A stretch of DNA of 64,000 nt from an uncultured Verrucomicrobiae bacterium. Its GTDB lineage: Bacteria > Verrucomicrobiota > Verrucomicrobiia > Chthoniobacterales > JAATET01. The translations under genes and the position numbers were made by a program. Under the pieces are notes generated by a model. That model saw only the letters and a list, made by a program, of their open reading frames with translations, had not been told where the DNA came from and did not search any database. Positions 24,464 through 41,516 of this stretch are shown piece after piece. The DNA lies in NCBI GenBank assembly GCA_963719495.1, contig CAVRCI010000001.1:224001-288000 (forward strand). The letters are read 5' to 3'. The number at the start of each line of letters is the position of its first letter. Position 1 is the first letter of the stretch.

Positions 24464-25384
24464 ATGGCCACCACCACCCACACCCTCGACGACCTCACCT
24501 CCGGCAAACTTGCCGCACTCACCCCACCCGCCCGCCTCGCCGTCATCGGTGACCCCATCGCCCACACCCGCTCCCCCGCCTTTCAAAACGCCGCGCTCAA
24601 AGCCGCGGGCATCGAAGCCCAATACGTCGCCATCCACGTCACCCCCGCCGAACTCGAAACCGCCCTCCGCGCCCTCCCCGACCAAGGCTTCGTCGGCGCC
24701 AACGTCACCGTCCCCCACAAAACCGCCACCCGCGCCCTCGTGGACGACCTCGACCCCGCCGTCGCTCTCGCCGGCGGAGTCAACACCGTCGTCGTCCGCG
24801 ACGACCACACCCTCCAGGGCTTCAGCACCGACGGCCCCGGCTTCGCCCGCGCCATCCGCGAGCAATTCTCCGTCGACCTCCGCGACCTCCGCATCCTCGT
24901 CCTGGGAGCCGGCGGCGGAGCCGGCCGCGCCATCGCCGCCCAGTGCGCCCTCGCCCACTGCGAACGCCTCGTCCTCGTCAACCGCACGGTTCAGAAAGCC
25001 CGGGAGCTCGCCGCCGAGCTCGCCCCCCACTTCCGCTCCGACCGCCTCGAAGGCCCCGTCGACCGCCTCGAAGCCATCCCCCACGACCCCGACGCCCTCG
25101 CCCGCCACCTCGATTACGTCGACCTCGTCGTCAACGCGACCACTCTCGGCATGAAGCGCTCCGACCCGCCCGCGCTCCCATCCTCCCTCCTTACCCCCAA
25201 TCTCATGGTCTACGACACCGTCTACGCGAACGGCCAAAGCCGCCTCGTCGAAGACGCCCGCGCCGCCGGAGCCCGCGCCGCCGACGGCCTTTCCATGCTC
25301 CTGCACCAAGGAGCCCTCAGTTTCGAAATCTGGTTCAACCGCGACGCCCCCCTCGCCGCCATGCGCACCGCGCTCGAAACCTGA
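24464..25384 (+). CDS. aroE: Shikimate dehydrogenase
   Basis: GDPIAHTRSP, GANVTVPHK, VNT, TDG.GF, GAGGG, NRT, MLLHQG. Confidence 0.93.
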   Translation: MATTTHTLDDLTSGKLAALTPPARLAVIGDPIAHTRSPAFQNAALKAAGIEAQYVAIHVTPAELETALRALPDQGFVGANVTVPHKTATRALVDDLDPAVALAGGVNTVVVRDDHTLQGFSTDGPGFARAIREQFSVDLRDLRILVLGAGGGAGRAIAAQCALAHCERLVLVNRTVQKARELAAELAPHFRSDRLEGPVDRLEAIPHDPDALARHLDYVDLVVNATTLGMKRSDPPALPSSLLTPNLMVYDTVYANGQSRLVEDARAAGARAADGLSMLLHQGALSFEIWFNRDAPLAAMRTALET

Positions 25385-25437
25385 CTCCGGACATTTATCC
25401 TATTGACTACGGCCATCTGACCCGCGACGTTCCTTCC

Positions 25438-25842
25438 ATGATCGTCGCCGAACAACCCGCCCGTTACTTCACCCGCGATCGCGAGATCCTCGACCGCATC
25501 GCGGCGATCCGCGAGGGCATGCCCGTCGCCGATCTCGCCAACCTCGCCACCCGCACCGGCCTCCCAATCAGCGCCCTCGCCGAGAGCCTCCGCCTCAACA
25601 CCCGCACCCTCCGCCGCCGCACCGACCGCCTCAACGCCGAAGAGACCGAGAAATTCCTCCGCGTCACCCGCGTTCTCGACCGCGCCGAAGAGCTCATGGA
25701 TCCCGAAGCCGCCCGTCAGTGGCTCACCGAGCCAGCGATCGCCCTCGGTCGCCGCACCCCGATCAGCCTCCTCGACACCGACCTCGGCACCGCCCAGGTC
25801 TTCACCGTCCTCGGCGCCATCGATTGGTGCATGGGCGTATGA
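25438..25842 (+). CDS. Type II antitoxin, Xre/MbcA/ParS family
   Basis: HTH-like N-half, 'ARQWLTEPAIALGRRTPISLLDT..G...V'; overlaps RES gene. Confidence 0.9.
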   Translation: MIVAEQPARYFTRDREILDRIAAIREGMPVADLANLATRTGLPISALAESLRLNTRTLRRRTDRLNAEETEKFLRVTRVLDRAEELMDPEAARQWLTEPAIALGRRTPISLLDTDLGTAQVFTVLGAIDWCMGV

Positions 25843-26303
25843 CGATCTATCGAATCGACCGCGCAACCCGTTCCGACCCGACCGAGTCCTTCTCCGGCCA
25901 AGGCGGCCTCTTCGTGGCCCACCGCTGGAACGAACTCGGAACGCGTATCGTCTACGCGGCCTCGTCCCTCCCGCTCGCCTGCCTGGAAATCCTCGTCAAT
26001 CTCCCCACGCCCCGAACCCTCCCGCCCCTCGTCTACTTCCGCGCCGAGGTCCCCGACCGACTCGTCGAAGACACCCCAAAACTCCCCGCCGACTGGTCGA
26101 GCTTCCCACCCACTCCGGCCACCCAGCGCCTTGGCAGTCAATGGATCACCGGTGCCCGCACCCCCGCCCTCCGCGTCCCCTCAGCGCTCCTCCCCACCAA
26201 CGAACCCGGCAATATCCTCCTGAACCCAAGCCACCCCACGTTCGACCTCTCGTGGGTCGGCGGTCCCTGGCCCCTCCCATTCGACACCCGCCTCCAAAAA
26301 TGA
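25839..26303 (+). CDS. RES-domain toxin (NAD+-consuming, ParT/MbcT-like)
   Basis: 'SGQGG...RWN', 'YAASS..LA.LE', 'LRVPS', 'NILLNPSHP'; ATGA overlap. Confidence 0.92.
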   Translation: MTIYRIDRATRSDPTESFSGQGGLFVAHRWNELGTRIVYAASSLPLACLEILVNLPTPRTLPPLVYFRAEVPDRLVEDTPKLPADWSSFPPTPATQRLGSQWITGARTPALRVPSALLPTNEPGNILLNPSHPTFDLSWVGGPWPLPFDTRLQK

Positions 26304-26713: not shown

Positions 26714-27892
26714 ATGCCCACGCTCAACAAACAATTCCCGCGCCTCCTCCCGACCCCGGTCACCAGAAACCAGACCGCCGCCGACCTCATCGACGGCACG
26801 TTCAAAGCCTACAACGGCGCCCGCCTCGCCGAAGCCTGCCGACTCTTCTCCGACAAAATGCTCGAAGGCGACGGCACCGTCGGCATGTCGCTCACCGGTG
26901 CCCTCACCCCCGCTGGCCTCGGCAAATCCTGCCTCGTCCCGCTGCTCAAAGCCGGCTTCGTCGACTGGATCATCTCGACCGGCGCGAATCTCTACCACGA
27001 CCTCCACTACGGCCTCGGCATGGAACTCTTCGCCGGATCGCCCAACCTCGACGACATCGACCTCCGCCACGCCGGCGTCATCCGGATTTACGACGTCCTT
27101 TTCGATTACGACGTCCTCCTCGACACCGACGCCTTCGTCCGCCAGGTCATTCAAGGCCCCGAATTCCAACGCCCCCTGGGCACCGACGAATTCCACTTCC
27201 TCCTCGGCAAATACGTCCACGAGCGCGAGAAGACCCTCGGCATCTCCGAGCACAGCCTCCTCGCCGCCGCCTACAAATACCGCGTCCCCATCTTCACCAG
27301 CAGCCCCGGCGATTCCTCCATCGGAATGAACGTCGCCGCCATGTCGCTGCGCGATTCCAAGCTCAGCTTCGACGTCAACCGCGACGTCAACCAGACCGCC
27401 GCCATCGTCTACGACGCCAAATCCACCGGCGGCAAATCCAGCGTCTTCATCCTCGGCGGCGGCAGCCCAAAAAATTTCATGCTCCAGACCGAGCCCCAGA
27501 TCCAAGAGGTCATGGGCATCGAGGAGCGCGGCCACGACTACTTCCTCCAGTGCACCGACGCCCGCCCCGACACCGGCGGCCTCAGCGGAGCCACCCCCGG
27601 CGAAGCCGTCAGTTGGGGCAAGATCGACCCCGACTCCCTCCCCGACTGCGTCGTCTGCTACCTCGACAGCACCGTAGCCCTCCCCCTCATCACCTCCTAC
27701 GCCCTCAGCCGAACCAAGCCCCGCAAGCCCAAAAAACTCTACGACCGCCGCGACGCGATGCTCGAAGAGGTCCGCAAACAATACCTCAAAGTCGGCCAAG
27801 TCGACAAAGTCGCCCACCGCACGGACCTCAACAAAAAGAAAAAGCCCGCCCGCAACCTCGCCAAGCGAGCCAGCAGCGTCGGCGTCAAGTAA
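26714..27892 (+). CDS. Deoxyhypusine synthase-like protein (probable homospermidine synthase, SpeY type)
   Basis: [34 protein letters not shown] with catalytic Lys. Confidence 0.88.
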
Positions 27893-27967: not shown

Positions 27968-28840
27968 TCACTTCCCCCCAGCAGGATCGCAGACCTCCCG
28001 CAACGAATCCCCCACCACGTTCAGTGCCAGCAAAGTCGCCGTGAAAAAGAACGCCGGAAACAGCAGCAGCCAAGGGTAGATCTCCATCATCTCCGCCCCC
28101 TCCTTGATCAACGTCCCCCAGGAACTCAGCGGCGGCTGCGCCCCCAGTCCCAAAAAGCTCAAAAACGACTCGAGTAAAATAATCGAAGGCACGTTCAGCG
28201 TCGTGTAAGCGATCACCGGCCCAGCGATGTTCGGCAGGATTCCGCGCAGAAAAATCCGCGCCCGCCCCGCCCCCAGCGCCCGCGAAGCCAGCACGTAATC
28301 CAGCTTCCGCACCGCCATCACCTGCGACCGCACGATCCGCGCCGTCGTCATCCATTCCAGCGCGCCAATCGCCACGAACAGCAGGAAAAAACTCCGCCCG
28401 AACACCACCATCAGCAGGATCACGACCACCGCGAACGGCAGCGCGTAAAGCAGATCCACCACCCGCATCATCGCCGCGTCCACCCGACCGCCCGCGTATC
28501 CCGCCACCCCGCCGTAGATCACCCCGATCACCAACGACACCAGCGCCGCGCACACCCCGACCCCCAGCGAGATCCGTCCGCCCTCCAGCATCCGCGCCAG
28601 CTGATCCCGCCCCAGCACGTCCGTTCCCAACCAGTGATCCCACCGCGGCCCGACCGCCCCCAGTTCCAGGGTCTGCAACTTCGCCGCCTCCGGCAACCAC
28701 CACGGCCCGACGAGACAAGCCACGATCAACACCACCAGAAAACTCACCGACAGCGCAACCGTCGGCTGACGCAATGACCTCGCCCAGCCCGTCCAATTCT
28801 CACGATCCCGCGCCGCTTCCACCGCCACCCCCTCACCCAT
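27968..28840 (-). CDS. oppC: Oligopeptide ABC permease OppC-like
   Basis: HWLGTDVLGRD, ARIVRSQV, EAA-like loop, ESFLSFLGLG. Confidence 0.9.
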   Translation of the reverse strand: MGEGVAVEAARDRENWTGWARSLRQPTVALSVSFLVVLIVACLVGPWWLPEAAKLQTLELGAVGPRWDHWLGTDVLGRDQLARMLEGGRISLGVGVCAALVSLVIGVIYGGVAGYAGGRVDAAMMRVVDLLYALPFAVVVILLMVVFGRSFFLLFVAIGALEWMTTARIVRSQVMAVRKLDYVLASRALGAGRARIFLRGILPNIAGPVIAYTTLNVPSIILLESFLSFLGLGAQPPLSSWGTLIKEGAEMMEIYPWLLLFPAFFFTATLLALNVVGDSLREVCDPAGGK

Positions 28841-29747
28841 GACGCACGCGCGGGTTCAGCCCCGCCTGCGCGAGGTCGGCCAGAAAATTGAAGATCGAGA
28901 TCAGCGCCGCGTAAAAAAGCACCATCCCCAGCACCAGGGTGTAGTCCCGGTTCAGCGAAGCCGTGACGAAAAACCGCCCCAACCCCGGCACCTGAAAGAT
29001 CGACTCCACCACGAACGACCCCGTCAAGATTCCCGCCATCGCGGGCCCGAGATAAGCCACCACCGGCGACACCGCGAGCCGCATCGCGTGCTTCCAGACG
29101 AGCGTTCCCTCGCCGACCCCTTTCGCCCGCCCGCTCCGCACGTAGTTCTTCTTCAACTCCTCGACCAGCCCGCTCCGCATCAACCGCGCGACGTAGGCGA
29201 CGTAAGCCGCCGCCAGCGTGATCGACGGCAGAATCCGGTCCGCCGCGCTCCCCCAACCCGACGAATTCACGACCCCCAGCCAAAGCGCGAAAATCAAAAT
29301 CAGGACCGGCCCCACCACGAACGTCGGCAGACAAACCCCCAACGCCGACACCCCCATCGCCAGCCGATCCTTCCACGATCCCCGTCGAGTCGCCGCCCAG
29401 ATCCCCAGCGGAATCCCCACCCCCATCGCAATTAAGAGCGCCCACAGCCCCAACTCCAGCGACACCGGCAGCGCCTCCAGAATGATCTCGTTCACCGTCC
29501 GCCCCGGATATTTGAACGACGGCCCGAGATCGCCGCGCAGCAGATTCCCGAGGTATTGCCCGTATTGCGTGAGCAGCGGCTGATCCAATCCGTAGTGCGC
29601 CTCCAACTCCGCCAGTACCTCCGGCCGCACCGACCGGTCGTCGTCGAAGGGACCGCCCGGCGCCAGGCGAATGATGAAAAACGTGACCGTTGCCACGCCC
29701 CACAGCACCAGCAACATCGACGCAAAGCGTGCAACGAACATCCTCAT
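28833..29747 (-). CDS. oppB: Oligopeptide ABC permease OppB-like
   Basis: APGGPF, YGLDQP, GDLGPSF, RAKG, GSFVVESIF.VPGLG. Confidence 0.92.
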   Translation of the reverse strand: MRMFVARFASMLLVLWGVATVTFFIIRLAPGGPFDDDRSVRPEVLAELEAHYGLDQPLLTQYGQYLGNLLRGDLGPSFKYPGRTVNEIILEALPVSLELGLWALLIAMGVGIPLGIWAATRRGSWKDRLAMGVSALGVCLPTFVVGPVLILIFALWLGVVNSSGWGSAADRILPSITLAAAYVAYVARLMRSGLVEELKKNYVRSGRAKGVGEGTLVWKHAMRLAVSPVVAYLGPAMAGILTGSFVVESIFQVPGLGRFFVTASLNRDYTLVLGMVLFYAALISIFNFLADLAQAGLNPRVRHG

Positions 29748-29814
29748 GACCGCCATCCACCTTCGACTATCCGTCCCGCGTCGGACGACGCAAATCGCCG
29801 ACCCCACCCGCCGC

Positions 29815-31083
29815 TCACCGCCCGGCCCGCCGCCCGACGACCTCGCCCCGGCTCAGCTTGAGCAGCAGCATCGCGCTCATCTTCGCCCGCTCGGTCAAGC
29901 TCGGGACGAGCATGAACTCCTCGTCGCTGTGCAGATTCGCTCCCACCACGCCCAGACTGTCCAAAGTCGGCAACCCGACCGCCTGCAGCCGATTCCCGTC
30001 GCACGCCCCGCCCGTCGGAGCCCACGAGAGATCGACGCCGAACTCCCCACCGATCTCCGCCATCGCCTCGAGCAGCAGCCGCGTCCCCGCCGTCTCCGGC
30101 TTCGGCGAGCTCGAGAACTGCCCCAGCATTTCCACCCGACACCCGTCCGCTTCGTTGAGCACCCGCACGACCTCCGCCGCCCTCACCCGGAACCAATCCT
30201 CGTCCTCCGCCACCACCGTCCGCACGTTCACCAGACACGACGCCAACGCCGGCACGATGTTCGCCGCGCCGCCGCCCTGGATCTGCCCGACGTTCACCGT
30301 GAGTCCGTCCCGCCTCCCGTTGAGCCCGTCCAGCGCCGACACCAAGTGCGACAACAGACAAATCGCGTTCCGGCCCTTGTCGAAATCCCGCCCCGCGTGC
30401 GCCGCCTTCCCGTGCACGCGAAAGGTGAACGTCCCCGACCCTTTCCGCGCGCTCACCAACCCGCCGTCCGGCATCGAAGGCTCAAACACCAGCGCGACAT
30501 CGTGCCCCTCCGCGTGCCGCACCAACGACGGCTCGCTCCAAATCGACCCGATCTCCTCGTCGGGATTGAGAAAAACCGTCCACCCCAGCCCGCAGTCCGG
30601 CTCCACCATTCGCTCGAACGCTTCCAGCGCCGATAGCATTACCATCAGCCCCCCCTTCATGTCCGCCGTGCCCGGACCACGCAGCGTCTCACTCGTTCGC
30701 TCGGGCAGCTGAAACGGATCATCGGCTCCGAAAACCGTGTCGTAGTGTCCCACGAGCATCACCTGCAGGTCGGCGTCGGGCCGTTTGCGCACGGTCACGA
30801 TCCGCCGACTCCCCGCCGACAGCCGATCCCCCGATTCCTCCGACACCGCCGCCCCCATCTCTTCCTCCGCGACGACGCCTCCGAGCCGGTCGAAGCTCGC
30901 GGTCAATCGCCCGCGCATCGCGGCCAGCCCCGCCTCGTTCCAGCTGCCGGAATTGGTCCCGACCCACTCAGCCAACAGCTCGGCCCGCTCCGGTTCGACG
31001 GCTTCGAGCCGTCGAAGCTCACCAGCAAACACCCGCCCGGATAACGTTTCAGCCGTCGGCTCGGCGAGAGACTGCAACGACAC
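29815..31083 (-). CDS. M20 family amidohydrolase (carboxypeptidase G2/ArgE/DapE-like)
   Basis: GHYDTV, GPGTADMKGG, PDEEIGS, GKAAHAG, GGACDGN, G.NLHSDEE. Confidence 0.9.
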   Translation of the reverse strand: MSLQSLAEPTAETLSGRVFAGELRRLEAVEPERAELLAEWVGTNSGSWNEAGLAAMRGRLTASFDRLGGVVAEEEMGAAVSEESGDRLSAGSRRIVTVRKRPDADLQVMLVGHYDTVFGADDPFQLPERTSETLRGPGTADMKGGLMVMLSALEAFERMVEPDCGLGWTVFLNPDEEIGSIWSEPSLVRHAEGHDVALVFEPSMPDGGLVSARKGSGTFTFRVHGKAAHAGRDFDKGRNAICLLSHLVSALDGLNGRRDGLTVNVGQIQGGGAANIVPALASCLVNVRTVVAEDEDWFRVRAAEVVRVLNEADGCRVEMLGQFSSSPKPETAGTRLLLEAMAEIGGEFGVDLSWAPTGGACDGNRLQAVGLPTLDSLGVVGANLHSDEEFMLVPSLTERAKMSAMLLLKLSRGEVVGRRAGR

Positions 31084-31094
31084 CGCTCGAAACC

Positions 31095-31805
31095 TTAGTT
31101 CCCGCGTTGATCGGCGTTCGCCGGACGATCCGAGTCCTTCAAAAACGCACCGTGCCCGTCGAAGAAGACGTAGACCCGCCCGCCATTCACCGGCGCGTAT
31201 TCCTTGCCGTTCGGGAGTCCATTGTAATTCAGATTGTCGACGTCCGAAATCATCCAGATCTTGCTCAATCCCGAGGCGCTGAATCCGCGAGTCCCCTTCT
31301 CGTAATCCGCCGCAATGATCTGGATCGGATTCTTCGGCGGCGTTGTCGACCGCGACGAAGGGTAGCCGAAAAACCGCGCGGGTTCGGTCGTCGTCCGATT
31401 ATTCAACGCGAGCACGACCATATCCTTACTCACCTCCGCGGTCTTCGGGTTGCTCCCGATCCAGACGTTTTTCCGTTCTGGAATGTAGTCCGCAAGGAGA
31501 CGCCGCAGGTTTTTCTGCTGCTCCGACTCGGGTAGCAGACGCTCGTATTCGGGGGAGCTGATGAACGTCCAAGTCGGCCCAGGCAAGTGTCCGTTGTCGT
31601 TGGCGTACATCAGACACGCACCCGCAATGGTTCTTTGATTACTCAACGAACGCGTGATGTTTGCCGACGTGTTCATCTTGCCCACGACCGGGACCGCGAT
31701 CGCGGCCAGGATCGAGACAATGGACACGACGACCAGAATCTCGATGAGCGTGAAACCCCGGCTTGATGTCTCCACAGTTCGATTCCTTGGTTCGGCGATT
31801 CCCAT
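31095..31805 (-). CDS. Prepilin-type N-terminal cleavage/methylation protein with C-terminal H-X9-DG-like motif
   Basis: G|FTLIEILVVVSIVSILAAIAVP; C-terminal 'NGGRVYVFFDGH'. Confidence 0.9.
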   Translation of the reverse strand: MGIAEPRNRTVETSSRGFTLIEILVVVSIVSILAAIAVPVVGKMNTSANITRSLSNQRTIAGACLMYANDNGHLPGPTWTFISSPEYERLLPESEQQKNLRRLLADYIPERKNVWIGSNPKTAEVSKDMVVLALNNRTTTEPARFFGYPSSRSTTPPKNPIQIIAADYEKGTRGFSASGLSKIWMISDVDNLNYNGLPNGKEYAPVNGGRVYVFFDGHGAFLKDSDRPANADQRGN

Positions 31806-32623
31806 CAGGCAACCGTGATCCTCCGACGCATGACGAAGAATGCCAACAGCCCCAGCAGGCAGAGGGCGACCGTCCCGGGTTCCGGCACTGGCGCGGTCGT
31901 CAGCGTGATCGAGTCGATGTCCACGAAGCCGCCCGTTCCGTCGAAGCGCGTGGCGAGCTGGATCTCGCGGATCAGCAGATTGTCCTCGAACGCCGGATCA
32001 TCGATACTGAGAACCGATCCGATCGCGGTGAAGCCACTGCCATCGTCGAATTCCAACCCGTAAGTCTTGGCGTCCAGATTCACGGTGAGCCGGAAGACGA
32101 TGGGCGACGACAGGGTCAGCCCGAGAATCAGATCATCCGCGCTCGAATTATCGAACCCGGTGTCCGAGAAAGACCCCACTCCCACGTCCGCGCTCCCGAC
32201 GTCGAATTGGAAACCCGCGATGATCACCGCGGCGGGGTCGTCGTTGATGAGCGTAAAGCCCAATCGCGGACTCGACGTGCCGAAGTCCCAGCTACTCACG
32301 GTCACGTCCAGCGTGACGAAGCCGCTTGTGATGTCGGAGCCACCGTTCACCAGCGCGTAGGATCGGATCCCCCCCGTGCCGAAATCAACACCGCCGATCG
32401 TCAAACTCCCGATCCCGTCCGTCGCGACCCCCGTGATGTCGGAATCGAATCCGATTCCGCCGGGTGCGCTGTTGGTCACGCTCGTCAGCCCCGTCCCACT
32501 CGCTTCGTCGAATTGAAAACTGTCGACGACGGTCTGCGCCCGCGCCCCGTGAGTCGCCAGCCCGAGAGCCAGGGTGGCGATACCGAGAATCCCGGCGGCC
32601 ATTCGATTGATTGAATTCTTCAT
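31805..32623 (-). CDS. PEP-CTERM sorting domain surface protein
   Basis: Signal peptide; C-terminal VPEP + TM + RRR. Confidence 0.93.
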   Translation of the reverse strand: MKNSINRMAAGILGIATLALGLATHGARAQTVVDSFQFDEASGTGLTSVTNSAPGGIGFDSDITGVATDGIGSLTIGGVDFGTGGIRSYALVNGGSDITSGFVTLDVTVSSWDFGTSSPRLGFTLINDDPAAVIIAGFQFDVGSADVGVGSFSDTGFDNSSADDLILGLTLSSPIVFRLTVNLDAKTYGLEFDDGSGFTAIGSVLSIDDPAFEDNLLIREIQLATRFDGTGGFVDIDSITLTTAPVPEPGTVALCLLGLLAFFVMRRRITVA

Positions 32624-32718
32624 GATGTGTTGGTTGGTATTTTTTTGTCCCCAGCCCGCGAACGATTGACCCGCCCCCGGTTTTGATGCCGCGAGTCTCG
32701 CCGATCAGCGAGATTCGT

Positions 32719-32740
32719 CCATACGCCGAAGGTCGTATAT
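32719..32740. promoter_or_regulatory. Candidate operator ccATACGccgaaggtCGTATat
   Basis: ATACG-N8-CGTAT dyad between divergent PEP-CTERM and LuxR genes; 19/22 match to 38002-38023. Confidence 0.7.
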
Positions 32741-32782
32741 GGGCGGCTGACAGATCCGACCCTCGTTGCTAGGCTTCCCGCG

Positions 32783-33931
32783 ATGAAGCGCGCGGCGGCA
32801 GCTCACGAGTCCTTCGACCGACTCTACGATCACCTGCTCGCCCTGCACGGGGCGAACGACGTTCGTCCGCTCTGGAAAGCGATGCGCGACCTCCTCCTCG
32901 CCGCCGCCCCCAGCCACCGGGTCACCCTCTTCCTCGGCCACATCGGCATGGGCGACGCCCGCATGGTCTTCACCGACCCGCCCATCGAGAACGCCGCCAA
33001 ATGGTACGCCGACCGCGGCAAAGACAGTCCCTTCAACGGCTTCATCATCAAAAACCGGAAGCTCAAGCACTACCTGTTCAGCGACATTCTCCCGCCGCGC
33101 GCCGAGTTCCTCAAAACCCCTTTCGCCCGCCGCGTCGCGAAAGCCGAAGGCTGGGACAAGGGCGCCTCCTTCCTCTTCTGGGACAAAACCGGCGTGAAGG
33201 CGATGTTCAGCCTCTACCGATCCGCCCGCCAACCCGAGTTCACCGAAGGTGAGATCGCCCTCCTCCGTCGGCTCTACCCCTTCCTCGAGATCGCCATCGA
33301 CCGCGTCGCGCACACCCAAAGCGAACGCCAACACCGCCGCGGCCTCGAGGACTTCAACAAACGCATTCCCATCGGCCTCATCCTCCTCGACTGGGAACTC
33401 CGCCCACTCTTCGCCAACGAGGAAGCCCAGCAAAAGTGCCTCCTCTGGCAGCAGGGCTCGGACGATTCCCGCGCCTTCAATGCCCGGGAAGTGTTCGCCG
33501 TCCCCGACGAACTCGTCTCCGCCTGCGAGCAAGTGAAAGACCGCTTCATCGTCGAGGCGATGAAAGCCAGCCCCGACGCCGACTCCGTCCAATCCAGCGT
33601 CATGCACCCGACCGTCCCCGGCCTCAAAGCCACCGTCTCGATGGTCAGCCGCGCCGCCTCCAGCATCGCAAAACCCCGCCTCCTCATCCTCATCGAACAC
33701 CGCGCGACCTCCGCCGAACTCCGCGGCCGCGACGATGCCAAGGTCGCCCTCCTCGCCCGGCTCACGCCCTCGGAGAAGGAACTCGTCGAACACGTCTGCC
33801 GCGGCCTCAGCAACCAGGAACTCGCCGACCACCTCCACAAAAGCATCCTCACCGTGAAGACGCAGCTCACCAGCATCTTCCAGAAACTCAACGTCCCCAA
33901 CCGGGGCCGCCTCATCTCGCTGCTCAAATAA
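32783..33931 (+). CDS. LuxR-type C-terminal HTH transcriptional regulator with N-terminal sensor domains
   Basis: 'LTPSEKELVEHVCRGLSNQELA..L.KSILTVKTQLTSIFQKLNV.NR'; no receiver domain. Confidence 0.9.
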   Translation: MKRAAAAHESFDRLYDHLLALHGANDVRPLWKAMRDLLLAAAPSHRVTLFLGHIGMGDARMVFTDPPIENAAKWYADRGKDSPFNGFIIKNRKLKHYLFSDILPPRAEFLKTPFARRVAKAEGWDKGASFLFWDKTGVKAMFSLYRSARQPEFTEGEIALLRRLYPFLEIAIDRVAHTQSERQHRRGLEDFNKRIPIGLILLDWELRPLFANEEAQQKCLLWQQGSDDSRAFNAREVFAVPDELVSACEQVKDRFIVEAMKASPDADSVQSSVMHPTVPGLKATVSMVSRAASSIAKPRLLILIEHRATSAELRGRDDAKVALLARLTPSEKELVEHVCRGLSNQELADHLHKSILTVKTQLTSIFQKLNVPNRGRLISLLK

Positions 33932-35246
33932 ATTCGAACAACTCCCCGAGCTGCAGGATACCACCCAGCTCGACCAGCGCCCGCCGCGATTCCTCGCCCA
34001 ACGCCGGGTCCGCCAAGTCCGCCGGCCGCAATTCCTCACGGTAATTCCGCGTCACCCAATCGACCAACTCCCCGTCGAGCGCCGGATTGAAAAGCACCCG
34101 CCCACGCACGCGGTTCAACTCCTTTTCAGTCAGAACGACCCGCAGCCGCAGACAAGCCGGCCCGCCCCCGTTCGACATGCTCTGCCGCAAATCCAGGTAG
34201 CGGACTTCCGCCAGCGGGCAAGCCGGATCCGCCACCAACCGCTCGATCAGCGACCGCACGGAATCCGATTCCCGGCATTCCATCGGAGCAATGAGCGCCA
34301 TCCCCGCTTCATCGCGAAGGTCGACGATCTGACCATTGAACAAATAACTCGCCACCGCCTCCTCCAGCGACACCTCCGCGTTCGCCACGACCCGCACCCG
34401 CAAGTCGTCGCACGTCGCCCGCTCGCCAAAGACGGTCCGCAATTCCGTGCACACCGCGTGCGTCCCCTCGAACGCGCTCTCGTGACACAGGAAAAAAGAC
34501 CGGTTGCCCGTCGAGATCACGTCGTTGTGAAAAACCCCAGCGCCGATCGCCGAAGCATTCTGCCGCGCCAGGACGACGGTTTCTGGATCCAACCGATGCA
34601 AACGCGCCACGGCCAGACTCGCCTCCCGACCCTGCCGCGCCCCGGCGAGCCCGCCTCCGTGCACGAAAAGATGAATCCCCCGCTCCCCGTGCGCGTCCCC
34701 GTGCCCGCACAGCCTCACGTGATTCGCCGCCCCCTCGTCGCCAAATTCCGCGCACGCCGGCAGCGCGTCGTGAACCACGAAACACTCACCGTCCGCAAAG
34801 ATCGCCCGCAACACCCGGGTCGAAAACTCCGTCTCCAACGACCGATGCAGGTGCGACGCCAGGTTGGCCGGCGTCAGATGCACCCGCCCGTCCGCCGTGT
34901 CCGCCGACGGCGCGACCGTCGCGAGATTCGCCGCCCACATCGCCGATGCCGACGAGGCCGCCGCGAGAACATGAGGGGCAACGTCCGCCGCTTCCGCCGC
35001 CGAGCCAAAACCCAACCGCCGCAGCGCCTCCAGCGACGGCCGCGGGTGCGGCGGCAGCACCGCCTGCCGCACCCCCATCCCGTGCAGCAGCCTCATCTTC
35101 GCCAATCCCTCGAGCGCCGCCGCCCTTGGATGCGAGACCTGCCGCCGATGCGCCCGCGAGGCGTTGTTCCCCGCCGACAACCCCGCGAAATTATGCGTCG
35201 GCCCCGGCAGCCCGTCGAAGTTCACCTCGTAAGACCGCTCGATCAT
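33924..35246 (-). CDS. astB: N-succinylarginine dihydrolase
   Basis: EVNFDGL.GPTHN.AGLS.GN.AS, SSASAMWAAN, GDEGAANH, GVFHNDVI, SMSNGGGPACLRLRV. Confidence 0.95.
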   Translation of the reverse strand: MIERSYEVNFDGLPGPTHNFAGLSAGNNASRAHRRQVSHPRAAALEGLAKMRLLHGMGVRQAVLPPHPRPSLEALRRLGFGSAAEAADVAPHVLAAASSASAMWAANLATVAPSADTADGRVHLTPANLASHLHRSLETEFSTRVLRAIFADGECFVVHDALPACAEFGDEGAANHVRLCGHGDAHGERGIHLFVHGGGLAGARQGREASLAVARLHRLDPETVVLARQNASAIGAGVFHNDVISTGNRSFFLCHESAFEGTHAVCTELRTVFGERATCDDLRVRVVANAEVSLEEAVASYLFNGQIVDLRDEAGMALIAPMECRESDSVRSLIERLVADPACPLAEVRYLDLRQSMSNGGGPACLRLRVVLTEKELNRVRGRVLFNPALDGELVDWVTRNYREELRPADLADPALGEESRRALVELGGILQLGELFEFI

Positions 35247-36256
35247 CGCAACGCCACCCAGCTCACCACGTCGCCCACCCCGACCTCCAGCGCCGCCGCC
35301 GTCGGACCGTCCAACCACACGTCCGCCCCGTCCACCTCGAGCAACCCCGTCGTCACGCGGAAATCCAGCCGCCCGTTCGCCACCATCCATTCGCTCCCGC
35401 CCGCGATCTCCCTCACCCCAGCCAGTCGTCCACACCGCCGCTCCCGCACCGTCCGAACCTCGTCCACCTTCGCCGACAGCAACGGACCACCGTCGAAGAT
35501 ATCCACCCGCTCCCAAAACCGAAATCCCTCCCACTCCAACAAAGACCGCGCCGGCCGCGTTTCCACGTGCACCTGCCCAATGGCCGCCCGCGCGTCGTCC
35601 GGCAACAAAAACGCGTACACCGGATGCTGCGGCATCAGATCCGCGATGAACGTCTTGTTCCCGATCCCGCTCTGAAAATCCGCGGACCGAAAATCCGAAT
35701 TGAAAAAATGCGACCCCACCGCGTTCCAAAACGGCGCGCCCGTCTCCCGGTCCGACACCCCCCGCATCTCCGAGATCACCACCCCCTCGAACCGCTCGCG
35801 AAACGCCGCCAGGAACAAAAACCGCCCCAGCGACAGCAACCGCCCGCGCCCCCCGCCCCGCGACTTCGGCCGCAGATACAGCGAACAAATTTCCGAAGGC
35901 CCGCTGTGCTCCCGCACCAGATGCAGCACCTCGAAGTCCCGCGCCACCGCGAGCGCGTCGTGCCGGTGCGTCTCCCGCCGGATCTCGTAGGTGTAGAACG
36001 GATCGAATCCCCCGACCTTCGCCGCGATCCCCGACACCCCGAGCAACTCCCCCGACCCCGCGTCCTCCAGCCCGAAGAGATAGACCTGATCCCCCGGCCG
36101 CGTCACCCCCCGGCGGAACGCGTGCACCGACTCCGCCACCCGTCCCGCCAGAAAATCCTCGTCGTCCGGCAGGCTCGTCAGCGCGCACGGCTCCCGCCGC
36201 ACCATCTCCACGATCCCCCCCAGATCGCTTTCGCAAACCGGCCTCACGACCCCCAT
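35243..36256 (-). CDS. astA: Arginine N-succinyltransferase
   Basis: LTSLP, EICSLYL, GRLLS.GRFLF, SEMRG, PFW, F.ADLMP.HP.Y, DIFDGGP; overlaps astB start. Confidence 0.93.
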   Translation of the reverse strand: MGVVRPVCESDLGGIVEMVRREPCALTSLPDDEDFLAGRVAESVHAFRRGVTRPGDQVYLFGLEDAGSGELLGVSGIAAKVGGFDPFYTYEIRRETHRHDALAVARDFEVLHLVREHSGPSEICSLYLRPKSRGGGRGRLLSLGRFLFLAAFRERFEGVVISEMRGVSDRETGAPFWNAVGSHFFNSDFRSADFQSGIGNKTFIADLMPQHPVYAFLLPDDARAAIGQVHVETRPARSLLEWEGFRFWERVDIFDGGPLLSAKVDEVRTVRERRCGRLAGVREIAGGSEWMVANGRLDFRVTTGLLEVDGADVWLDGPTAAALEVGVGDVVSWVALR

Positions 36257-36257
36257 T

Positions 36258-36346
36258 GTAGCGGCGCGTCTAGGACCGCCGCTGGCTCCGCGACGATCGA
36301 TCCCCGCCTCCCCGTCCCCCGTCCGGCGGTCACGGACCGCCGCTAC
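36258..36346. repeat. REPIN-like inverted pair of GTAG-foot hairpins (family C)
   Basis: gtagcggcgcgtctaggaccgccg ... cggcggtcacggaccgccgctac; second pair at 41529-41614. Confidence 0.8.
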
Positions 36347-36366
36347 AGCCACGCCCTCCACCGACT

Positions 36367-37968
36367 TCATCGCGCAAACGGCACTGGCACCAGACTCAGC
36401 TGCTTCAGCCGCCGGTCGTTGTAAGGCGTCCCCCGCCACCCCGCGACCGCCGGTTGTTTGAGGATCACCTGCGTCGTGTAGAAAATCGGGATCGCCGGCA
36501 GTTCCCGTAAAAATTCCCGCTCCGCCTCGATAAAAAACTCCGCCCGCTCCCCCGCGTTCCCCTCCGCCTGCGCCTTCGCAATCCACCCGTCGAACGTCGC
36601 GTCGCTCCACCCCGCCTCGTTGAAATGATTCCCCGTCGTCCACGCCCCCAGAAAAAATTGCGGATCCTGAAACGTCGCCGCGTTCCAGCTCCCCCGCGCC
36701 AGGTCGAACCGCCCCGCGTTCTTCGTCGCGATCAGCACGCGCGTCTCCTGACTCGATATCTCGACCTCGATCCCCAGATTCTTCCGCCACATCTCCTGCA
36801 CCACCTCCGCGATCAACCGGTGCGGCGCCCGCCCGTCCACCAGGATCTCCACCGACCTCAGCCCCTTCCCGCCCGGATACCCCGCCTCCGCCAGCAACCG
36901 CCGCCCCTCCGCCACGTCATACCGCAGCACCCGCGGCGGGTCGTAACCCGGCATCCCCGGCGGACTGAACGACTCCGCCGCCCGCTTCCCACCCCGCAGC
37001 ACGTATTTCACCAGCGCCGCCCGGTCAATCGTCAGCGACAACGCCCGCCGCAACCGCACGTCGTCGAACGGCGGCCGCGTCACGTTCACCGTGTAAAAAT
37101 AAATCCCGAAATCCTCCAGCGTCTGGATCCACTCCGGATACTTCTCCTCGTAGAGCGCGATCTTCTGCGGCGGCACCGAACTCGTCAGATGCAGCTGCCC
37201 GCTCCGAAACGCCGATTCCTCGGTCGTCGAATTCTCGATCGGCAAAAACGTCACCCCGTCCAGCGCGACGTTCGCCGCGTCCCAATACTCCGCGTTCTTC
37301 GTCACGATCACGTGCTTGTTCGGCGTCCACTCGCTCAGCCCGAACGGCCCGTTCCCCACCAGGGTCCCCGCCCGCGCCCACCCCGTCCCCCGCTCGTCGA
37401 TCCGCCCATACGCCTCGATGTTCGCCCGCTGCACCGGATAGAATTGCATCAGCGCCGACAGAAAAAACGGCGCGGGTTGCGTCAGCTCCATCTCCACGAT
37501 CCCCGGCTCCGGCGACCGAATCCCCACCTCGCCAAAATCCGTGACCGTCCCCTCCTGATAAGCCGAAGCGTTCCGCACGAACGCCAGAGTGTCCTCCACT
37601 TGATACGACCCCAGCTTCGGCGACAAAATCCGCCGCGCCGAATAGAGAATGTCCTCCGCCGTCAACGGCGACCCGTCGCTCCACCGCGCGTCCTCCCGGA
37701 TGTGAAACCGATACGTCAACCCGTCCGCCGACACCGTCCACCGATCCGCCACCCCCGGAGCCGGTTCCAAGGTCACCGGATCCGCCACCACCAAACCCTC
37801 GAAGAGCGCGCCGATGATCGTCCACTCCGCCGCTCCGCGAACGAGATAAGGGTCCAGCGACTCCGGCTCCGTCGAGTTCCCCTTGATCAGCATTTGCTCC
37901 CCCGCCAAACCCCACGACCCCGCCCCCGCGATCAGCAGAACACCAAGCCATTGCGAAACGAACTTCAT
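36367..37968 (-). CDS. oppA: Peptide ABC substrate-binding protein (family 5, OppA-like)
   Basis: EPESLDP, LFEGL, WSDG.PLTAED, GNGPF, PPFDDVRLRRALS. Confidence 0.92.
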   Translation of the reverse strand: MKFVSQWLGVLLIAGAGSWGLAGEQMLIKGNSTEPESLDPYLVRGAAEWTIIGALFEGLVVADPVTLEPAPGVADRWTVSADGLTYRFHIREDARWSDGSPLTAEDILYSARRILSPKLGSYQVEDTLAFVRNASAYQEGTVTDFGEVGIRSPEPGIVEMELTQPAPFFLSALMQFYPVQRANIEAYGRIDERGTGWARAGTLVGNGPFGLSEWTPNKHVIVTKNAEYWDAANVALDGVTFLPIENSTTEESAFRSGQLHLTSSVPPQKIALYEEKYPEWIQTLEDFGIYFYTVNVTRPPFDDVRLRRALSLTIDRAALVKYVLRGGKRAAESFSPPGMPGYDPPRVLRYDVAEGRRLLAEAGYPGGKGLRSVEILVDGRAPHRLIAEVVQEMWRKNLGIEVEISSQETRVLIATKNAGRFDLARGSWNAATFQDPQFFLGAWTTGNHFNEAGWSDATFDGWIAKAQAEGNAGERAEFFIEAEREFLRELPAIPIFYTTQVILKQPAVAGWRGTPYNDRRLKQLSLVPVPFAR

Positions 37969-38001
37969 CCGCCCCGACCCTACCCGATCCCGAGCCCCCG
38001 C

Positions 38002-38023
38002 CCATACACCGAAGGTCTGATAT
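38002..38023. promoter_or_regulatory. Candidate operator ccatacaccgaaggtctgatat
   Basis: Lies between divergent oppA and cyanophycinase genes; 19/22 match to 32719-32740. Confidence 0.7.
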
Positions 38024-38081
38024 CCCACCCCCACCGCCGAATATCTTCGCTCCCCCCGCACCCCCCGCCAAAGATCATCGC

Positions 38082-39065
38082 GTGAAATCCACTCTCATCC
38101 TCGTGCTCACCACCGGACTCGCCACCATGAACGCTATGACCGCCCGCACCGCCACCTCAACCGAATCGACCGGCCCCGACTACACCCTCTTCGAACTCGG
38201 TAATCCCGACGTCACCACGCCGACCACACCCGGCCTCCTCCTCATGGGCGGCGGCGGCGATGTCGACGAAGCCATCCGGTGGTTCATTCAGCAAGCCGGC
38301 GGCGGCGACATCGTCGTCCTTCGAGCCGGCGGCGGCGACGGCTACCAGGATTACTTCCACTCCGAAATCGGCGGCATCAATTCCGTCACCAGCATCGTCT
38401 TCGATTCCGAAAAACCTTCCTCCGACCCCGCCATCCTCGACCGCGTCGCCAAGGCGGAGGGCATCTTCATCGCCGGCGGCGACCAGGCCCGTTACTACCG
38501 ATTCTGGGCCGAAACCCCCCTCGCCGCCGCCATCACCAAACACCACGCCGACGGCAAACCCCTCGGCGGCACCAGCGCCGGCCTCGCCGTCCTCGGCGGC
38601 CAGTGCTACTCCGCCCGCAACGACACCGTCATCTCCAAGGAAGCCCTCGCCGACCCCTTCGACGACCGCGTCACCCTCGACCCCGGCATGTTCGACATCC
38701 CGATCATCGATCACCTCCTCACCGACTCCCATTTCAGCCAACGCGATCGCCTCGGCCGCCTCGTCACCTTCGTAGGCCGCCTCCGCGCCCAGACCCCGCC
38801 CATCGAGCTCATCGGAGTCGGCGTCGACGAGCGCACCGCCCTCTGCGTCGAAGCCGACGGCACCGCCAAAATCATCAGCCCGGACGAAGGCACCGTCACA
38901 CTGGTCAAGCTCACCACCCCCCCAAAGACCGTCGAACCCCAAAAGCCCCTGGAAGCCGAAGGCATCCAGATCCAAGTCCTCCCCACCGGCACCACCCTCG
39001 ACGTCGAAAGCCTCGACCAGCAATTCGAGAACACCCCCACCCAGACAGAAGCCGACCTGCAATAG
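38082..39065 (+). CDS. Secreted cyanophycinase-family serine peptidase (S51)
   Basis: Signal peptide, LMGGG, IAGGDQ, GGTSAG (Ser), DSHFSQRDRLGRL (His), GVDE (Glu). Confidence 0.85.
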   Translation: MKSTLILVLTTGLATMNAMTARTATSTESTGPDYTLFELGNPDVTTPTTPGLLLMGGGGDVDEAIRWFIQQAGGGDIVVLRAGGGDGYQDYFHSEIGGINSVTSIVFDSEKPSSDPAILDRVAKAEGIFIAGGDQARYYRFWAETPLAAAITKHHADGKPLGGTSAGLAVLGGQCYSARNDTVISKEALADPFDDRVTLDPGMFDIPIIDHLLTDSHFSQRDRLGRLVTFVGRLRAQTPPIELIGVGVDERTALCVEADGTAKIISPDEGTVTLVKLTTPPKTVEPQKPLEAEGIQIQVLPTGTTLDVESLDQQFENTPTQTEADLQ

Positions 39066-39266: not shown

Positions 39267-40655
39267 GTGACCCTCCTCGCCGCCGCCACCAGCACCGCCG
39301 CAGCCGCCAGCACCGCCGCCCCCCCCGCGCTCCCGATGATCCTCATCGGCGGAGTCCTCATTCTCACGTTCATTGCCATCGCGTTCGAGCTCGTCCACAA
39401 AAGCCTCGCCGCCCTCGCCGGAGCCATCGTCGCCGTCATTCTCGCCCTCTCGCTCGGCGTCTTCCCGGGAGAAAAGCCCTACGAGACCGTCTACAACTTC
39501 ATCGGCCACGACCTCGGCGTGATCGGCGTCATCGTGGGCACCAGCATCCTCGTCGGCATCACCGCGAAGTCCGGCCTCTTCCACTTTATCGCCATCAAGC
39601 TCGTCAAGCTCACCCACGGCAAACCCGCCCTCCTCCTCCCCGCTGTGATGGTCGCCACCATCGGCTTCGTCACCTTTCTCACCATCGCGCCCGGCGTCCT
39701 CATCATGACGTCCCTCGTCCTCGTCATCACCAAATCACTCGGCTACAAGCCCGTGCCCTACATCATGGTCGTCGCCATCGGCGCGAACTCCGGCGCGCTC
39801 ATGACCTTCGCCTCCGGCATCCCGACGCTCATGATCGGCACCAGCGCCGGCATCCCCTACGTCGACTTCCTCCTCGTCTCCACCCCGCTCGCCATCCTCT
39901 CCGCCGTCCTCGCGTTCTTCGTCATCCGCTTCTCCTACCGCAAGGACCTCGTCGCTCTCGGAGATCCGATCGAGCGCCGCGAGAAGGTCGCGCAGTTCGA
40001 CGAATGGGCGCTCGTGAAAGACCGCTCCATTTTTGCCCGCTGCGCGGTCATCCTCGGCTTCACCATCCTCGGATTCGCCTTCGCCCAGCAGCTCGGCGTC
40101 GGCCTCGACTTCATCGCCTTCTGCGGAGCCGCCGCCGCCCTCCTCTTCTCCGGCTTCGACACCGAGGACGCCATCCGCGCCGTCAAGTGGCCGATCATTC
40201 TCTTCTTCGTCGGCCTCTTCGTCCTCATCGGCGCCGTCCGCGAGACCGGGCTCCTCGAGATCCTCGCCCAACAAATTTTCCTCATCTCCGGCACCAACGT
40301 CTTCATCGCCATCGTCATCCTCGTTCCGTTCGTTTTCATCACCGCCGGCATCGTCGACAACATCCCCGTCGCCGCCACGATGATCCCCATCACCAAGTCC
40401 ATGATCGCCTCCGGCCTTCCCGCCGAGCCGCTCTGGTGGGCTCTCATCGCCGCCAGCAACCTCGGTGGCAATCCAACCCCGGTCGGTTCCATCGCCGCCG
40501 TCATCGCCCTCCACGCCCTCGAAAAAGAGCGCGGCATCACGATCGGCTGGGGTGAATACCTCAAGGTCGGCGGCCTCGTCACCCTCCTCCAGATCCCCCT
40601 CGTCGTCGGCTACTTGGAACTCTATCGCTGGCTCGACCTCTTCCCAAAACTGTAA
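39267..40655 (+). CDS. ArsB/NhaD/SLC13-like ion transporter (IT superfamily)
   Basis: About 11-12 TMs, 'GIVDNIP', 'NLGGNPTPVGSIA'. Confidence 0.85.
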   Translation: MTLLAAATSTAAAASTAAPPALPMILIGGVLILTFIAIAFELVHKSLAALAGAIVAVILALSLGVFPGEKPYETVYNFIGHDLGVIGVIVGTSILVGITAKSGLFHFIAIKLVKLTHGKPALLLPAVMVATIGFVTFLTIAPGVLIMTSLVLVITKSLGYKPVPYIMVVAIGANSGALMTFASGIPTLMIGTSAGIPYVDFLLVSTPLAILSAVLAFFVIRFSYRKDLVALGDPIERREKVAQFDEWALVKDRSIFARCAVILGFTILGFAFAQQLGVGLDFIAFCGAAAALLFSGFDTEDAIRAVKWPIILFFVGLFVLIGAVRETGLLEILAQQIFLISGTNVFIAIVILVPFVFITAGIVDNIPVAATMIPITKSMIASGLPAEPLWWALIAASNLGGNPTPVGSIAAVIALHALEKERGITIGWGEYLKVGGLVTLLQIPLVVGYLELYRWLDLFPKL

Positions 40656-40685
40656 CGCGAGCTTCCCGCTTGCACCCATCCGCTC

Positions 40686-41516
40686 ATGAACGACGCCAAC
40701 GACCGCGACATCGACGACAACATGGACCGCTTCGAGGCCGCCTCGTCGGCCCGTGCCATCACCCTGCCCACCATCGACCTGACCCGCATCCTCCTCGCTC
40801 TCGACGGGTCCAATCAGGACACCCCCGCCCGCGATCTCGCCGAGCGTTTCGAAGCAACGATCTCAACCGCCAGCCTCGACTCCGACGACTCACCCCACCG
40901 CCAGATCCTCGATCAGTGCCGCGAATCCGGCAGCGACCTTATCGTCGTCCCCGCCCCCTTCCGCGAGGACTTCGCCGAGCTCGGAGCCGCCAGCATCGGG
41001 TCGAATCTCGACCGCCTCCTCAGCCAACGCGACACCCCCCTCCTCGTCGTGCGCGACCCCGACCGCGCCAGCGAGAACCTCACCCGCGAGATCGTCCTCC
41101 CGCTTTCCTTCGTCGCCGCCGAAGACATCCGCGCCGCGGCCTGGGCCTTCCGCACCCTCGCCCCCGGTGGGCGCATCCGCATCCTTGCCGTCGTCGACAC
41201 CGAACATCTCGTCCGCGACCACAGGCTCGAAGGCGGTGCCCTCGACGTCGAGGACCTTGAGGAATTCGACCTCGCCGGACTCGATCAACCCGGGATGGCC
41301 GGCCTCATCGCCGCCGTCCAACGTCACGCCGCCGAGAACGACGTCGGCTGCCGGGTCAGCATCCGCGTCGGTGCCACGGTCAAAGCCACCGCCGAATTCG
41401 CCAACGCCCAGCCCTGCATCCTGGCCGTCACCTGCCCCCTCGACGACACCGACCCCGCCTACGCCGACGTCCACAGCCTCACCCGCCAAAGCCGCAATCC
41501 GGTCCTGATCGTTTGA
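40686..41516 (+). CDS. Tandem universal stress protein-like protein
   Basis: 'RILLALDGS', 'DLIVV', 'IGSNLDRLL...TPLLVV', C-terminal 'NPVLIV'. Confidence 0.75.
   Translation: MNDANDRDIDDNMDRFEAASSARAITLPTIDLTRILLALDGSNQDTPARDLAERFEATISTASLDSDDSPHRQILDQCRESGSDLIVVPAPFREDFAELGAASIGSNLDRLLSQRDTPLLVVRDPDRASENLTREIVLPLSFVAAEDIRAAAWAFRTLAPGGRIRILAVVDTEHLVRDHRLEGGALDVEDLEEFDLAGLDQPGMAGLIAAVQRHAAENDVGCRVSIRVGATVKATAEFANAQPCILAVTCPLDDTDPAYADVHSLTRQSRNPVLIV

Follow-up and report, generated by a model that had tools for sequence, protein, structure and literature searches.

A ten-gene locus probably devoted to LuxR-controlled scavenging of cyanophycin nitrogen in an uncultured Verrucomicrobiae bacterium

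Background

Whether ten adjoining genes of an uncultured Verrucomicrobiae bacterium form a single system for the use of cyanophycin, and which enzyme of such a system would split the dipeptide beta-Asp-Arg, are the questions raised by the locus described here. The genes lie at 27968..39065 of a stretch of 64,000 nucleotides (the window; positions 224,001 to 288,000 of contig CAVRCI010000001.1, assembly GCA_963719495.1), and encode an S51 serine peptidase, the peptide transport proteins OppA, OppB and OppC, the arginine catabolic enzymes AstA and AstB, an M20 metallo-amidohydrolase, a LuxR-type regulator, a PEP-CTERM surface protein and a prepilin-like protein. Gene calls and family profile matches confirmed the contiguity and divergent arrangement described in an earlier, sequence-only reading of the window.

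Cyanophycin is a large environmental store of nitrogen, and in several phyla the enzyme splitting its dipeptide has yet to be found (PMC10206079). The concept of a cyanophycin utilization locus goes back to Ben Hania et al. 2017 (strain L21-Spi-D4, as cited in PMC10206079), and in 45 of 52 genomes devoid of cphA1 the cyanophycinase gene is clustered with iaaA or iadA. The dipeptidases of some phyla are described there as still undiscovered, and M20 enzymes go unmentioned in the portion of that article available to us.

In this work we propose, with a probability of about 0.7, that the ten genes constitute a single regulon, under LuxR control, that scavenges nitrogen from cyanophycin. The PEP-CTERM protein, of predicted lectin fold, and the pilin-like protein would capture cyanophycin or its fragments, or bring them in, replacing the TonB receptor of relatives; the exported S51 peptidase would cut cyanophycin to beta-Asp-Arg in the periplasm or at the surface, and a dedicated OppA with OppB-OppC would import the dipeptide using an ATPase encoded elsewhere. 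Arginine would then probably be converted by AstA to N-succinyl-arginine, by AstB to N-succinyl-ornithine, two NH3 and CO2, and by M20 to ornithine and succinate, a route proposed because no AstD orthologue was found in the genome. The weakest step is the liberation of arginine from beta-Asp-Arg: since this dipeptide is chemically an amino-succinyl-arginine, M20 may perform it as well, at somewhat less than even odds.

Results and discussion

Resemblance of the S51 peptidase to cyanophycinases

The Ser-His-Glu set noticed in the sequence-only reading is intact: S165, H217 and E250 align with S132, H174 and E201 of CphB from Synechocystis, to which the protein aligns with E 1e-16 (3.5e-4 for PepE). 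The CphB pocket residues Q101, D172, R178, R180 and R183 correspond to Q135, D215, R221, R223 and R226, and the position of Q173 is taken by Ser216; all 120 listed homologues have a hydroxyl residue there (Ser in 100, Thr in 20). The pocket and triad residues of CphB are critical, and the assayed CphE carries Thr at position 173 (PMC3235067). In its triad, Gln, Asp, three Arg and leader the protein resembles both CphB (3en0, 7uqw) and CphE of Pseudomonas alcaligenes/anguilliseptica (PMC3235067); it has 327 residues against about 420 in CphE, a comparison drawn with the published description of CphE. The closest folds to the structural model (predicted local distance difference test, pLDDT, 89) are the cyanophycinases 7uqw (substrate-bound) and 3en0, with template modelling (TM) scores of 0.75-0.79 to cyanophycinases versus 0.60-0.69 to PepE-type peptidases. 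By every structural test run the modelled protein appears cyanophycinase-like, and the pocket residues and fold ranking favour this assignment over a PepE-like one, as had been presumed. The absence of a cyanophycin synthetase (CphA) from the host genome (4.54 Mb, 98.6% complete) fits a scavenger.

Several features weigh against the assignment. The score to the cyanophycinase equivalog hidden Markov model TIGR02069 stays below its cut-off (103.5 against 126.6 bits), identity to solved cyanophycinases is only 23-27%, D202 of CphB is replaced by Arg at a position that is variable in the family, and our literature search found no assay of this S51 subfamily. The low score, the changed D202 position and the missing assay would suit a single regulon acting on another arginine-containing or iso-aspartyl peptide, such as iso-peptides of damaged proteins or a cyanophycin-like polymer, with the S51 protein a divergent peptidase and not a cyanophycinase; the promiscuity of IaaA, the usual partner of S51 (PMC10206079), and the frequency of the PEP-CTERM protein's fold among sugar binders point the same way. 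We judge this improbable, as every residue reported to bind cyanophycin is there, in the manner of CphE, the fold is nearer to CphB than to PepE, and the linkage to arginine catabolism fits beta-Asp-Arg.

The leader, judged from its hydrophobic stretch alone, reaches a Kyte-Doolittle mean of 2.46 over nine residues, and 99 of the 120 homologues reach 1.8. The linkage of related S51 genes to TonB receptors suggests a periplasmic rather than freely secreted enzyme, and the extracellular depolymerisation first envisaged was not borne out.

S51 loci of distant relatives

A contig scan with the single S51 protein gave no match, whereas a search of GTDB genomes with an alignment of 50 S51 sequences gave at least 587 relatives, of which the best 80 loci were analysed. 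Eighteen of these belong to the Planctomycetes-Verrucomicrobia-Chlamydiae (PVC) group, namely to Opitutaceae, other Verrucomicrobiota and Pirellulaceae, several being cut by contig edges. The usual order in them is TonB receptor, luxR and oppA, followed by divergent S51, M20, astA, astD and astB. M20 directly follows S51 in 16 of the 18, oppA (50-56% identical) is present in 15, luxR in 14, astA in 12, TonB receptor in 11 and astB in seven. Relatives of luxR, 44-55% identical, occur in 14 of the 80 loci, and astA lies beside astB in every locus that has astB.

The other genome loci come mostly from Xanthomonadales and Sphingomonadales; here a TonB receptor is near S51 in 54 and IaaA is next to or fused with it in 41. 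Over the best 80 loci a TonB receptor is nearby in 65, and the gene after S51 encodes IaaA (adjacent or fused) in 41, M20 in 16 and neither of them in 23; in seven of these 23 the downstream DNA is shorter than 2 kb. Six Sphingomonas-type loci without IaaA (L042, L065, L072, L078, L085, L086) have, immediately behind the TonB receptor, a distant M20 that resembles carboxypeptidase G2 and bears a leader peptide; it is another candidate dipeptidase. One Opitutaceae cluster (L024:5769-6896) combines S51-M20-astA-astD-astB with an IaaA gene located between those for the TonB receptor and LuxR. In metagenomes the oppA-S51-M20 core was found in seven of the best 80 of 390 loci; the other 73, many of them short, were without any queried gene.

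Co-occurrence in relatives, set beforehand as the test that could refute the proposal, is seen in Opitutaceae and in one genome of the Pirellulaceae. It extends to part of the genes: the set of S51, M20, oppA, luxR and astAB recurs in rearranged form, whereas oppB, oppC, pilin and PEP-CTERM genes matched nothing in the best 80 genome loci and adjoin S51 in this genus only. The Opitutaceae loci, moreover, are related by descent, their 22 M20 sequences forming one clade, and hence represent few independent events.

Conservation in the genus, family and order

All ten genes recur in unchanged order in the congeneric genome G055, with identities of 51-91%. In four other congeners (six genus genomes in all) the flanking gene for homospermidine biosynthesis is present with none of the ten genes beside it, and a close match to the cluster oppA is missing from 15 of 17 genomes of the family. 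The block was gained or lost as a whole in the genus, since G055 has all ten genes, the four congeners have none of them at that place and most family genomes have no close match to the cluster oppA.

The picture in the order is less favourable to the proposal. AstB is present in 16 of 151 genomes, and astA, astB and M20 are clustered in all 15 relatives that have it, yet S51, opp, luxR, pilin or PEP-CTERM genes lie beside them in G055 only, so that astA-astB-M20 is in 14 of the 15 an S51-free module. S51 was found in four of the 151 genomes, and its profile in two of 401 genomes of the phylum. G020 carries S51 and astAB on separate contigs without linkage, and oppC of G055 (L005:5582-6363) aligns in two reading frames, through either a sequencing error or a true break in the gene. 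On the order and phylum sample alone the cluster would pass for a local coincidence; the picture changes with the wider search. The module has no nearby astD in family f7 (L009, L011, L012, L014-L016, L018, L019), and it is accompanied by astD or astD-astC in f6 (L006-L008, L010) and f5 (L013, L017).

One explanation of this distribution is a mosaic, in which an astA-astB-M20 module, an S51-oppA-luxR module and a generic PEP-CTERM/pilin cassette adjoin without forming one pathway. Besides the S51-free modules it draws on the recurrence of the cassette, a PEP-CTERM gene being found directly upstream of five of the 33 prepilin-like genes detected by pattern in the genome, and on the trees of M20 (44 rows) and AstA (35 rows), which leave the origin of the host copies unsettled and join neither to the Opitutaceae cluster; the 22 S51-linked M20s form a clade (support 89/98) that excludes the host M20, a further point against the proposal. 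Opitutaceae nevertheless have the same gene set in another arrangement, the block is either complete or missing altogether in the genus, and the same operator-like site heads both transcription units. A mosaic is the least probable of the readings weighed here.

A shared operator-like site

The left unit runs from the PEP-CTERM gene through the prepilin-like, M20 and oppB genes to oppC, with gaps of -1, 11, 58 and -8 bases, and is divergent from luxR across 159 bases. On the other side luxR converges on astB (-8 bases), which is separated by -4 bases from astA and the latter by 110 bases from oppA; this oppA-astA-astB unit is divergent from S51 across 113 bases. Each divergent gap contains one copy of a 23-bp near-palindrome (at 32719 and 38002), the two being identical in 19 of 23 bases. 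No other site in the genome comes within four mismatches of either, G055 keeps both, and only one of 1000 shufflings of the two gaps reached 19 identical bases.

De novo motif search found a related palindrome in all 15 Opitutales-type oppA/S51 gaps. In all ten loci tested, the region upstream of the TonB receptor, which had not been used to construct the matrix built from these gaps, scored 18.7-32.3 bits with it. As a point against, the Opitutaceae matrix missed the two host sites at 9 bits; these share 9-14 of 18 bases with the motif and seem to be a diverged form of it. A matrix of the four sites of the genus itself revealed no further convincing regulon member in the genome (next best 22 versus 37 bits), and a promoter and terminator scan stayed at chance level.

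Since the same operator-like site stands in both divergent promoters, the two units likely form one regulon, as had been supposed, and LuxR would bind the two palindromes. Judged by sequence comparison, the locus is real and conserved, and it is probably co-regulated and engaged in cyanophycin scavenging.

The arginine route and the dipeptide-splitting step

AstA and AstB both exceed their family cut-offs, AstB with the motifs DEGAAN, FHND and GGGPAC. The arginine succinyltransferase (AST) pathway is encoded in E. coli by astCADBE. Here, unlike in E. coli, M20 travels with astAB, and astC, astD and astE are missing from the cluster. The genome contains no full AstE and no AstD orthologue (the best match is 36% identical, versus 53-59% for AstDs of clusters), and an aminotransferase encoded apart from the cluster shares 50% identity with a cluster AstC. 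As AstD was not found, the route in the host likely stops at ornithine, with two ammonia per arginine.

M20 belongs to PRK07338 (NF005602, 445 against a cut-off of 357 bits). Its two-metal motifs align with carboxypeptidase G2, the closest solved structure, and it resembles desuccinylases too. The release of arginine nitrogen from the dipeptide, as previously proposed, would agree with the presence of AstA and AstB; that proposal left unflagged that a known beta-Asp-Arg hydrolase was not found, which weighs against it. No IaaA, IadA or CphZ-like enzyme was detected in the nearly complete genome, and the cluster accordingly is without the known isoaspartyl dipeptidase expected of a cyanophycin locus. 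The single gene with an AstE/AspA domain (contig C7) was considered as CphZ and rejected, no CphZ structure being among its seven matches. In 19 other genomes with the cluster, mostly incomplete, IaaA occurs somewhere in eight and an AstE/AspA-domain match in 13, four of full length.

M20 is the best candidate for splitting beta-Asp-Arg because it holds the position of IaaA after S51 in relatives. A dipeptidase role is further supported by the origin of CphZ, a beta-Asp-Arg hydrolase, from the AstE desuccinylase family (PMC9974463), and by the retention of S51-M20 in genomes apparently without astA/astB: of five genomes tested, four have S51-M20 or S51 clusters yet yielded neither astA nor astB, and in one of these four IaaA was missing too. 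As proof of such a role the latter pattern is weakened by standalone M20s. When M20 loci were chosen regardless of S51, ten of 11 had neither S51 nor astA/B nearby (the 11 came from 12 of 201 genomes, with two rows omitted as already seen and two below the family cut-off). These standalone PRK07338-type M20s lie at L187-L194, L196 and L197, and one genome has two copies. M20 is present in exactly the same 16 of 151 order genomes as AstB, and it sits in astA-astB-M20-astD-astC clusters without astE. Co-occurrence with AstB, AST clusters devoid of astE, standalone loci and the placement of the host copy in the tree support a desuccinylase or broader role; the family seems to have uses outside cyanophycin, which tells against the proposal.

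The same chemistry might let AstB act first and remove the guanidino group from beta-Asp-Arg itself, giving beta-Asp-Orn, which M20 would split to Asp and Orn, with AstA serving free arginine only. Beta-Asp-Arg is the AstB substrate N-succinyl-arginine plus one amino group, and the genome provides no known dipeptide hydrolase. This order is very unlikely, given the four genomes that keep S51-M20 although neither astA nor astB was found in them, the presence of astA beside astB in all loci bearing the latter, and AstB motifs like those of genomes with the AST pathway only.

A cluster-specific type of peptide-binding protein

In the proposed cyanophycin regulon OppA would recognize beta-Asp-Arg. 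Two motifs missing from the host's housekeeping OppA are shared by all 24 cluster OppAs, which also, compared with Salmonella OppA, keep R413, have D419 replaced and have gained an invariant Arg near E32. We take D419 of the Salmonella protein to bind the normal peptide N-terminus and R413 the C-terminus. The change would fit a ligand whose N-terminal residue is unusual and extra-acidic, for example beta-Asp.

Opp peptide ATP-binding cassette (ABC) systems have a binding protein, two permeases and one or more ATPases in one locus. Family profile matches revealed no ABC ATPase among the ten genes; the nearest OppF-like gene (about 43986-44768) is outside the cluster, next to rodA and mqnC some 5 kb to its right. 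The transporter is indeed divided between two units, oppA in one and oppB/oppC in the other, as the sequence-only reading stated, although it overlooked that the ATPase is absent.

The PEP-CTERM and prepilin-like pair

The host genome has no TonB-receptor barrel or plug that we could find, and in the family no more than one or two plug matches were obtained for 13 of 17 genomes (one in G055). In three relatives (L021, L028, L029) luxR is divergent from a TonB receptor gene; the PEP-CTERM and pilin genes occupy the position of that receptor here, behind the same kind of site.

The model of the PEP-CTERM protein (pLDDT 92) is a concanavalin-A-like sandwich, for which carbohydrate-binding module, lectin and lyase folds tie in the fold search (best Z 15.6, root-mean-square deviation 3.0, 182 aligned residues). 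Such a common binding fold, as modelled, names no ligand. The prepilin-like protein falls into Atlas clusters annotated N_methyl and, for some, DUF1559; its globular part has only three relatives.

As anticipated for a surface pair marking a nutrient-use locus, PEP-CTERM and pilin pairs lie in nutrient-use loci elsewhere in the host genome. Three (L198, L200, L201; contigs C9, C11, C13) sit in sugar-use loci with genes for LacI regulators, sodium-solute or major facilitator superfamily transporters, GH2, heparinase-like (lyase), sulfatase and GDSL (esterase) proteins. The fourth (L199:1940-9354; contig C9, ~176-184 kb) heads a pilin-hemS-permease-ATPase-AraC haem operon with HemS and a FecCD permease; a TonB receptor gene is the usual first gene of such operons. 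HemS was found in 38 genomes of the order, and among 20 loci examined with long flanks a pilin homologue was present in 18 and a PEP-CTERM gene within 9 kb in 16, TonB receptors at the haem loci being sought by a length and C-terminus heuristic only. These associations support a putative general role of the pair in uptake.

A bolder combination, in which PEP-CTERM and prepilin form a TonB-independent outer-membrane uptake module swapped for TonB receptors (cyanophycin, haem) and the PRK07338 M20 is a fourth, new class of beta-Asp-Arg hydrolase doubling as desuccinylase of a three-step arginine-to-ornithine route, is offered tentatively and is doubtful as a whole.

Comparison with known systems

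Mucin utilisation loci of Akkermansia contain pilin-like proteins. Their substrate is a glycoprotein, whereas here a PEP-CTERM and single prepilin pair corresponds in position and operator to a TonB receptor. Like the cyanophycin utilization locus, the cluster combines a cyanophycinase-like gene and a transporter in the absence of cphA1. It differs in having PRK07338 M20 in place of iadA/iaaA, a family-5 OppA, astA-astB, a LuxR with a palindromic site, and PEP-CTERM and pilin genes in place of a TonB receptor, which adjoins the cyanophycinase in Citromicrobium (PMC3400609). The aotJQMOP-argR operon of P. aeruginosa, with CphZ/AotO, joins ABC import of beta-Asp-Arg to arginine use and a local regulator (PMC9974463), as is predicted here; it has an amino-acid ABC transporter, an M14-type CphZ, ArgR and no cyanophycinase, in contrast to the peptide ABC transporter, M20, LuxR and S51 of the present cluster.

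In the literature within reach, which left out most subscription journals and supplements, we found no description of this cluster, of the function of PRK07338 or of the exchange of PEP-CTERM and pilin for a receptor; the accessible parts of PMC9007349 and bioRxiv 10.1101/072470 had nothing on PRK07338 M20. The suggestion that the architecture is undescribed stands for the cluster and not for the concept, already in print (PMC10206079). With cyanophycin utilisation loci known since 2017, the fresh leads would be M20 as a candidate dipeptide hydrolase and the PEP-CTERM and pilin pair as a candidate stand-in for TonB receptors. The locus thus offers a candidate hydrolase, an OppA subfamily whose N-terminus site is altered and a regulator together with its likely DNA site, and, in the receptor of Opitutaceae versus the pair found here behind the same kind of operator, a natural swap that bears on polymer and haem uptake by TonB-poor Verrucomicrobiota.

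Features of the locus and its surroundings

Table 1 Genes and operator-like sites of the locus (window coordinates; profile scores are followed by cut-offs)
Feature	Position	Strand	Supporting matches
oppC, peptide ABC permease	27968..28840	-	PF00528; best NCBIfam OppC, below cut-off; 45% to housekeeping paralogue on contig C5
oppB, peptide ABC permease	28833..29756	-	PF00528 + PF19300; 48% to housekeeping paralogue on contig C5
M20 metallo-amidohydrolase, PRK07338; likely desuccinylase, candidate beta-Asp-Arg hydrolase	29815..31083	-	NF005602, 445 bits > 357
PVC-type prepilin-like protein, C-terminal F-x-DGH motif	31095..31805	-	PF07963, TIGR02532
PEP-CTERM surface protein, predicted concanavalin-A-like beta-sandwich	31805..32623	-	PF07589
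Operator-like near-palindrome, site 1 (PEP-CTERM/luxR gap)	32719..32741		19/23 identical to site 2
LuxR-type regulator, 382 amino acids, long N-terminal region	32783..33931	+	PF00196
astB, N-succinylarginine dihydrolase	33924..35246	-	NF009789, 550 > 452
astA, arginine N-succinyltransferase	35243..36256	-	PF04958; TIGR03243, 353 > 284
oppA, family-5 binding protein, cluster-specific subfamily	36367..37968	-	PF00496
Operator-like near-palindrome, site 2 (oppA/S51 gap)	38002..38024		pairs with site 1
S51 serine peptidase, cyanophycinase-like, hydrophobic leader	38082..39065	+	PF03575; TIGR02069 103.5 < 126.6

The cluster is flanked at 26714-27892 by a gene for a homospermidine biosynthesis protein (PRK00770, 584 against a cut-off of 450). 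It was considered as an ornithine sink and member of the cluster and rejected, being found in all six genus genomes, four of them without the cluster. The genes after S51 (39267-41516), for a CitMHS/ArsB-type transporter and a protein with a weak Usp domain, were rejected as members too, as they are absent from that place in G055. At 25384-26303 two small coupled open reading frames follow a shikimate-dehydrogenase-like gene and are, by eye, a candidate Xre/RES toxin-antitoxin pair. GC skew over the whole window (1-64000) is strongly and steadily negative (down to -0.48 per 2 kb), independent of gene strand.

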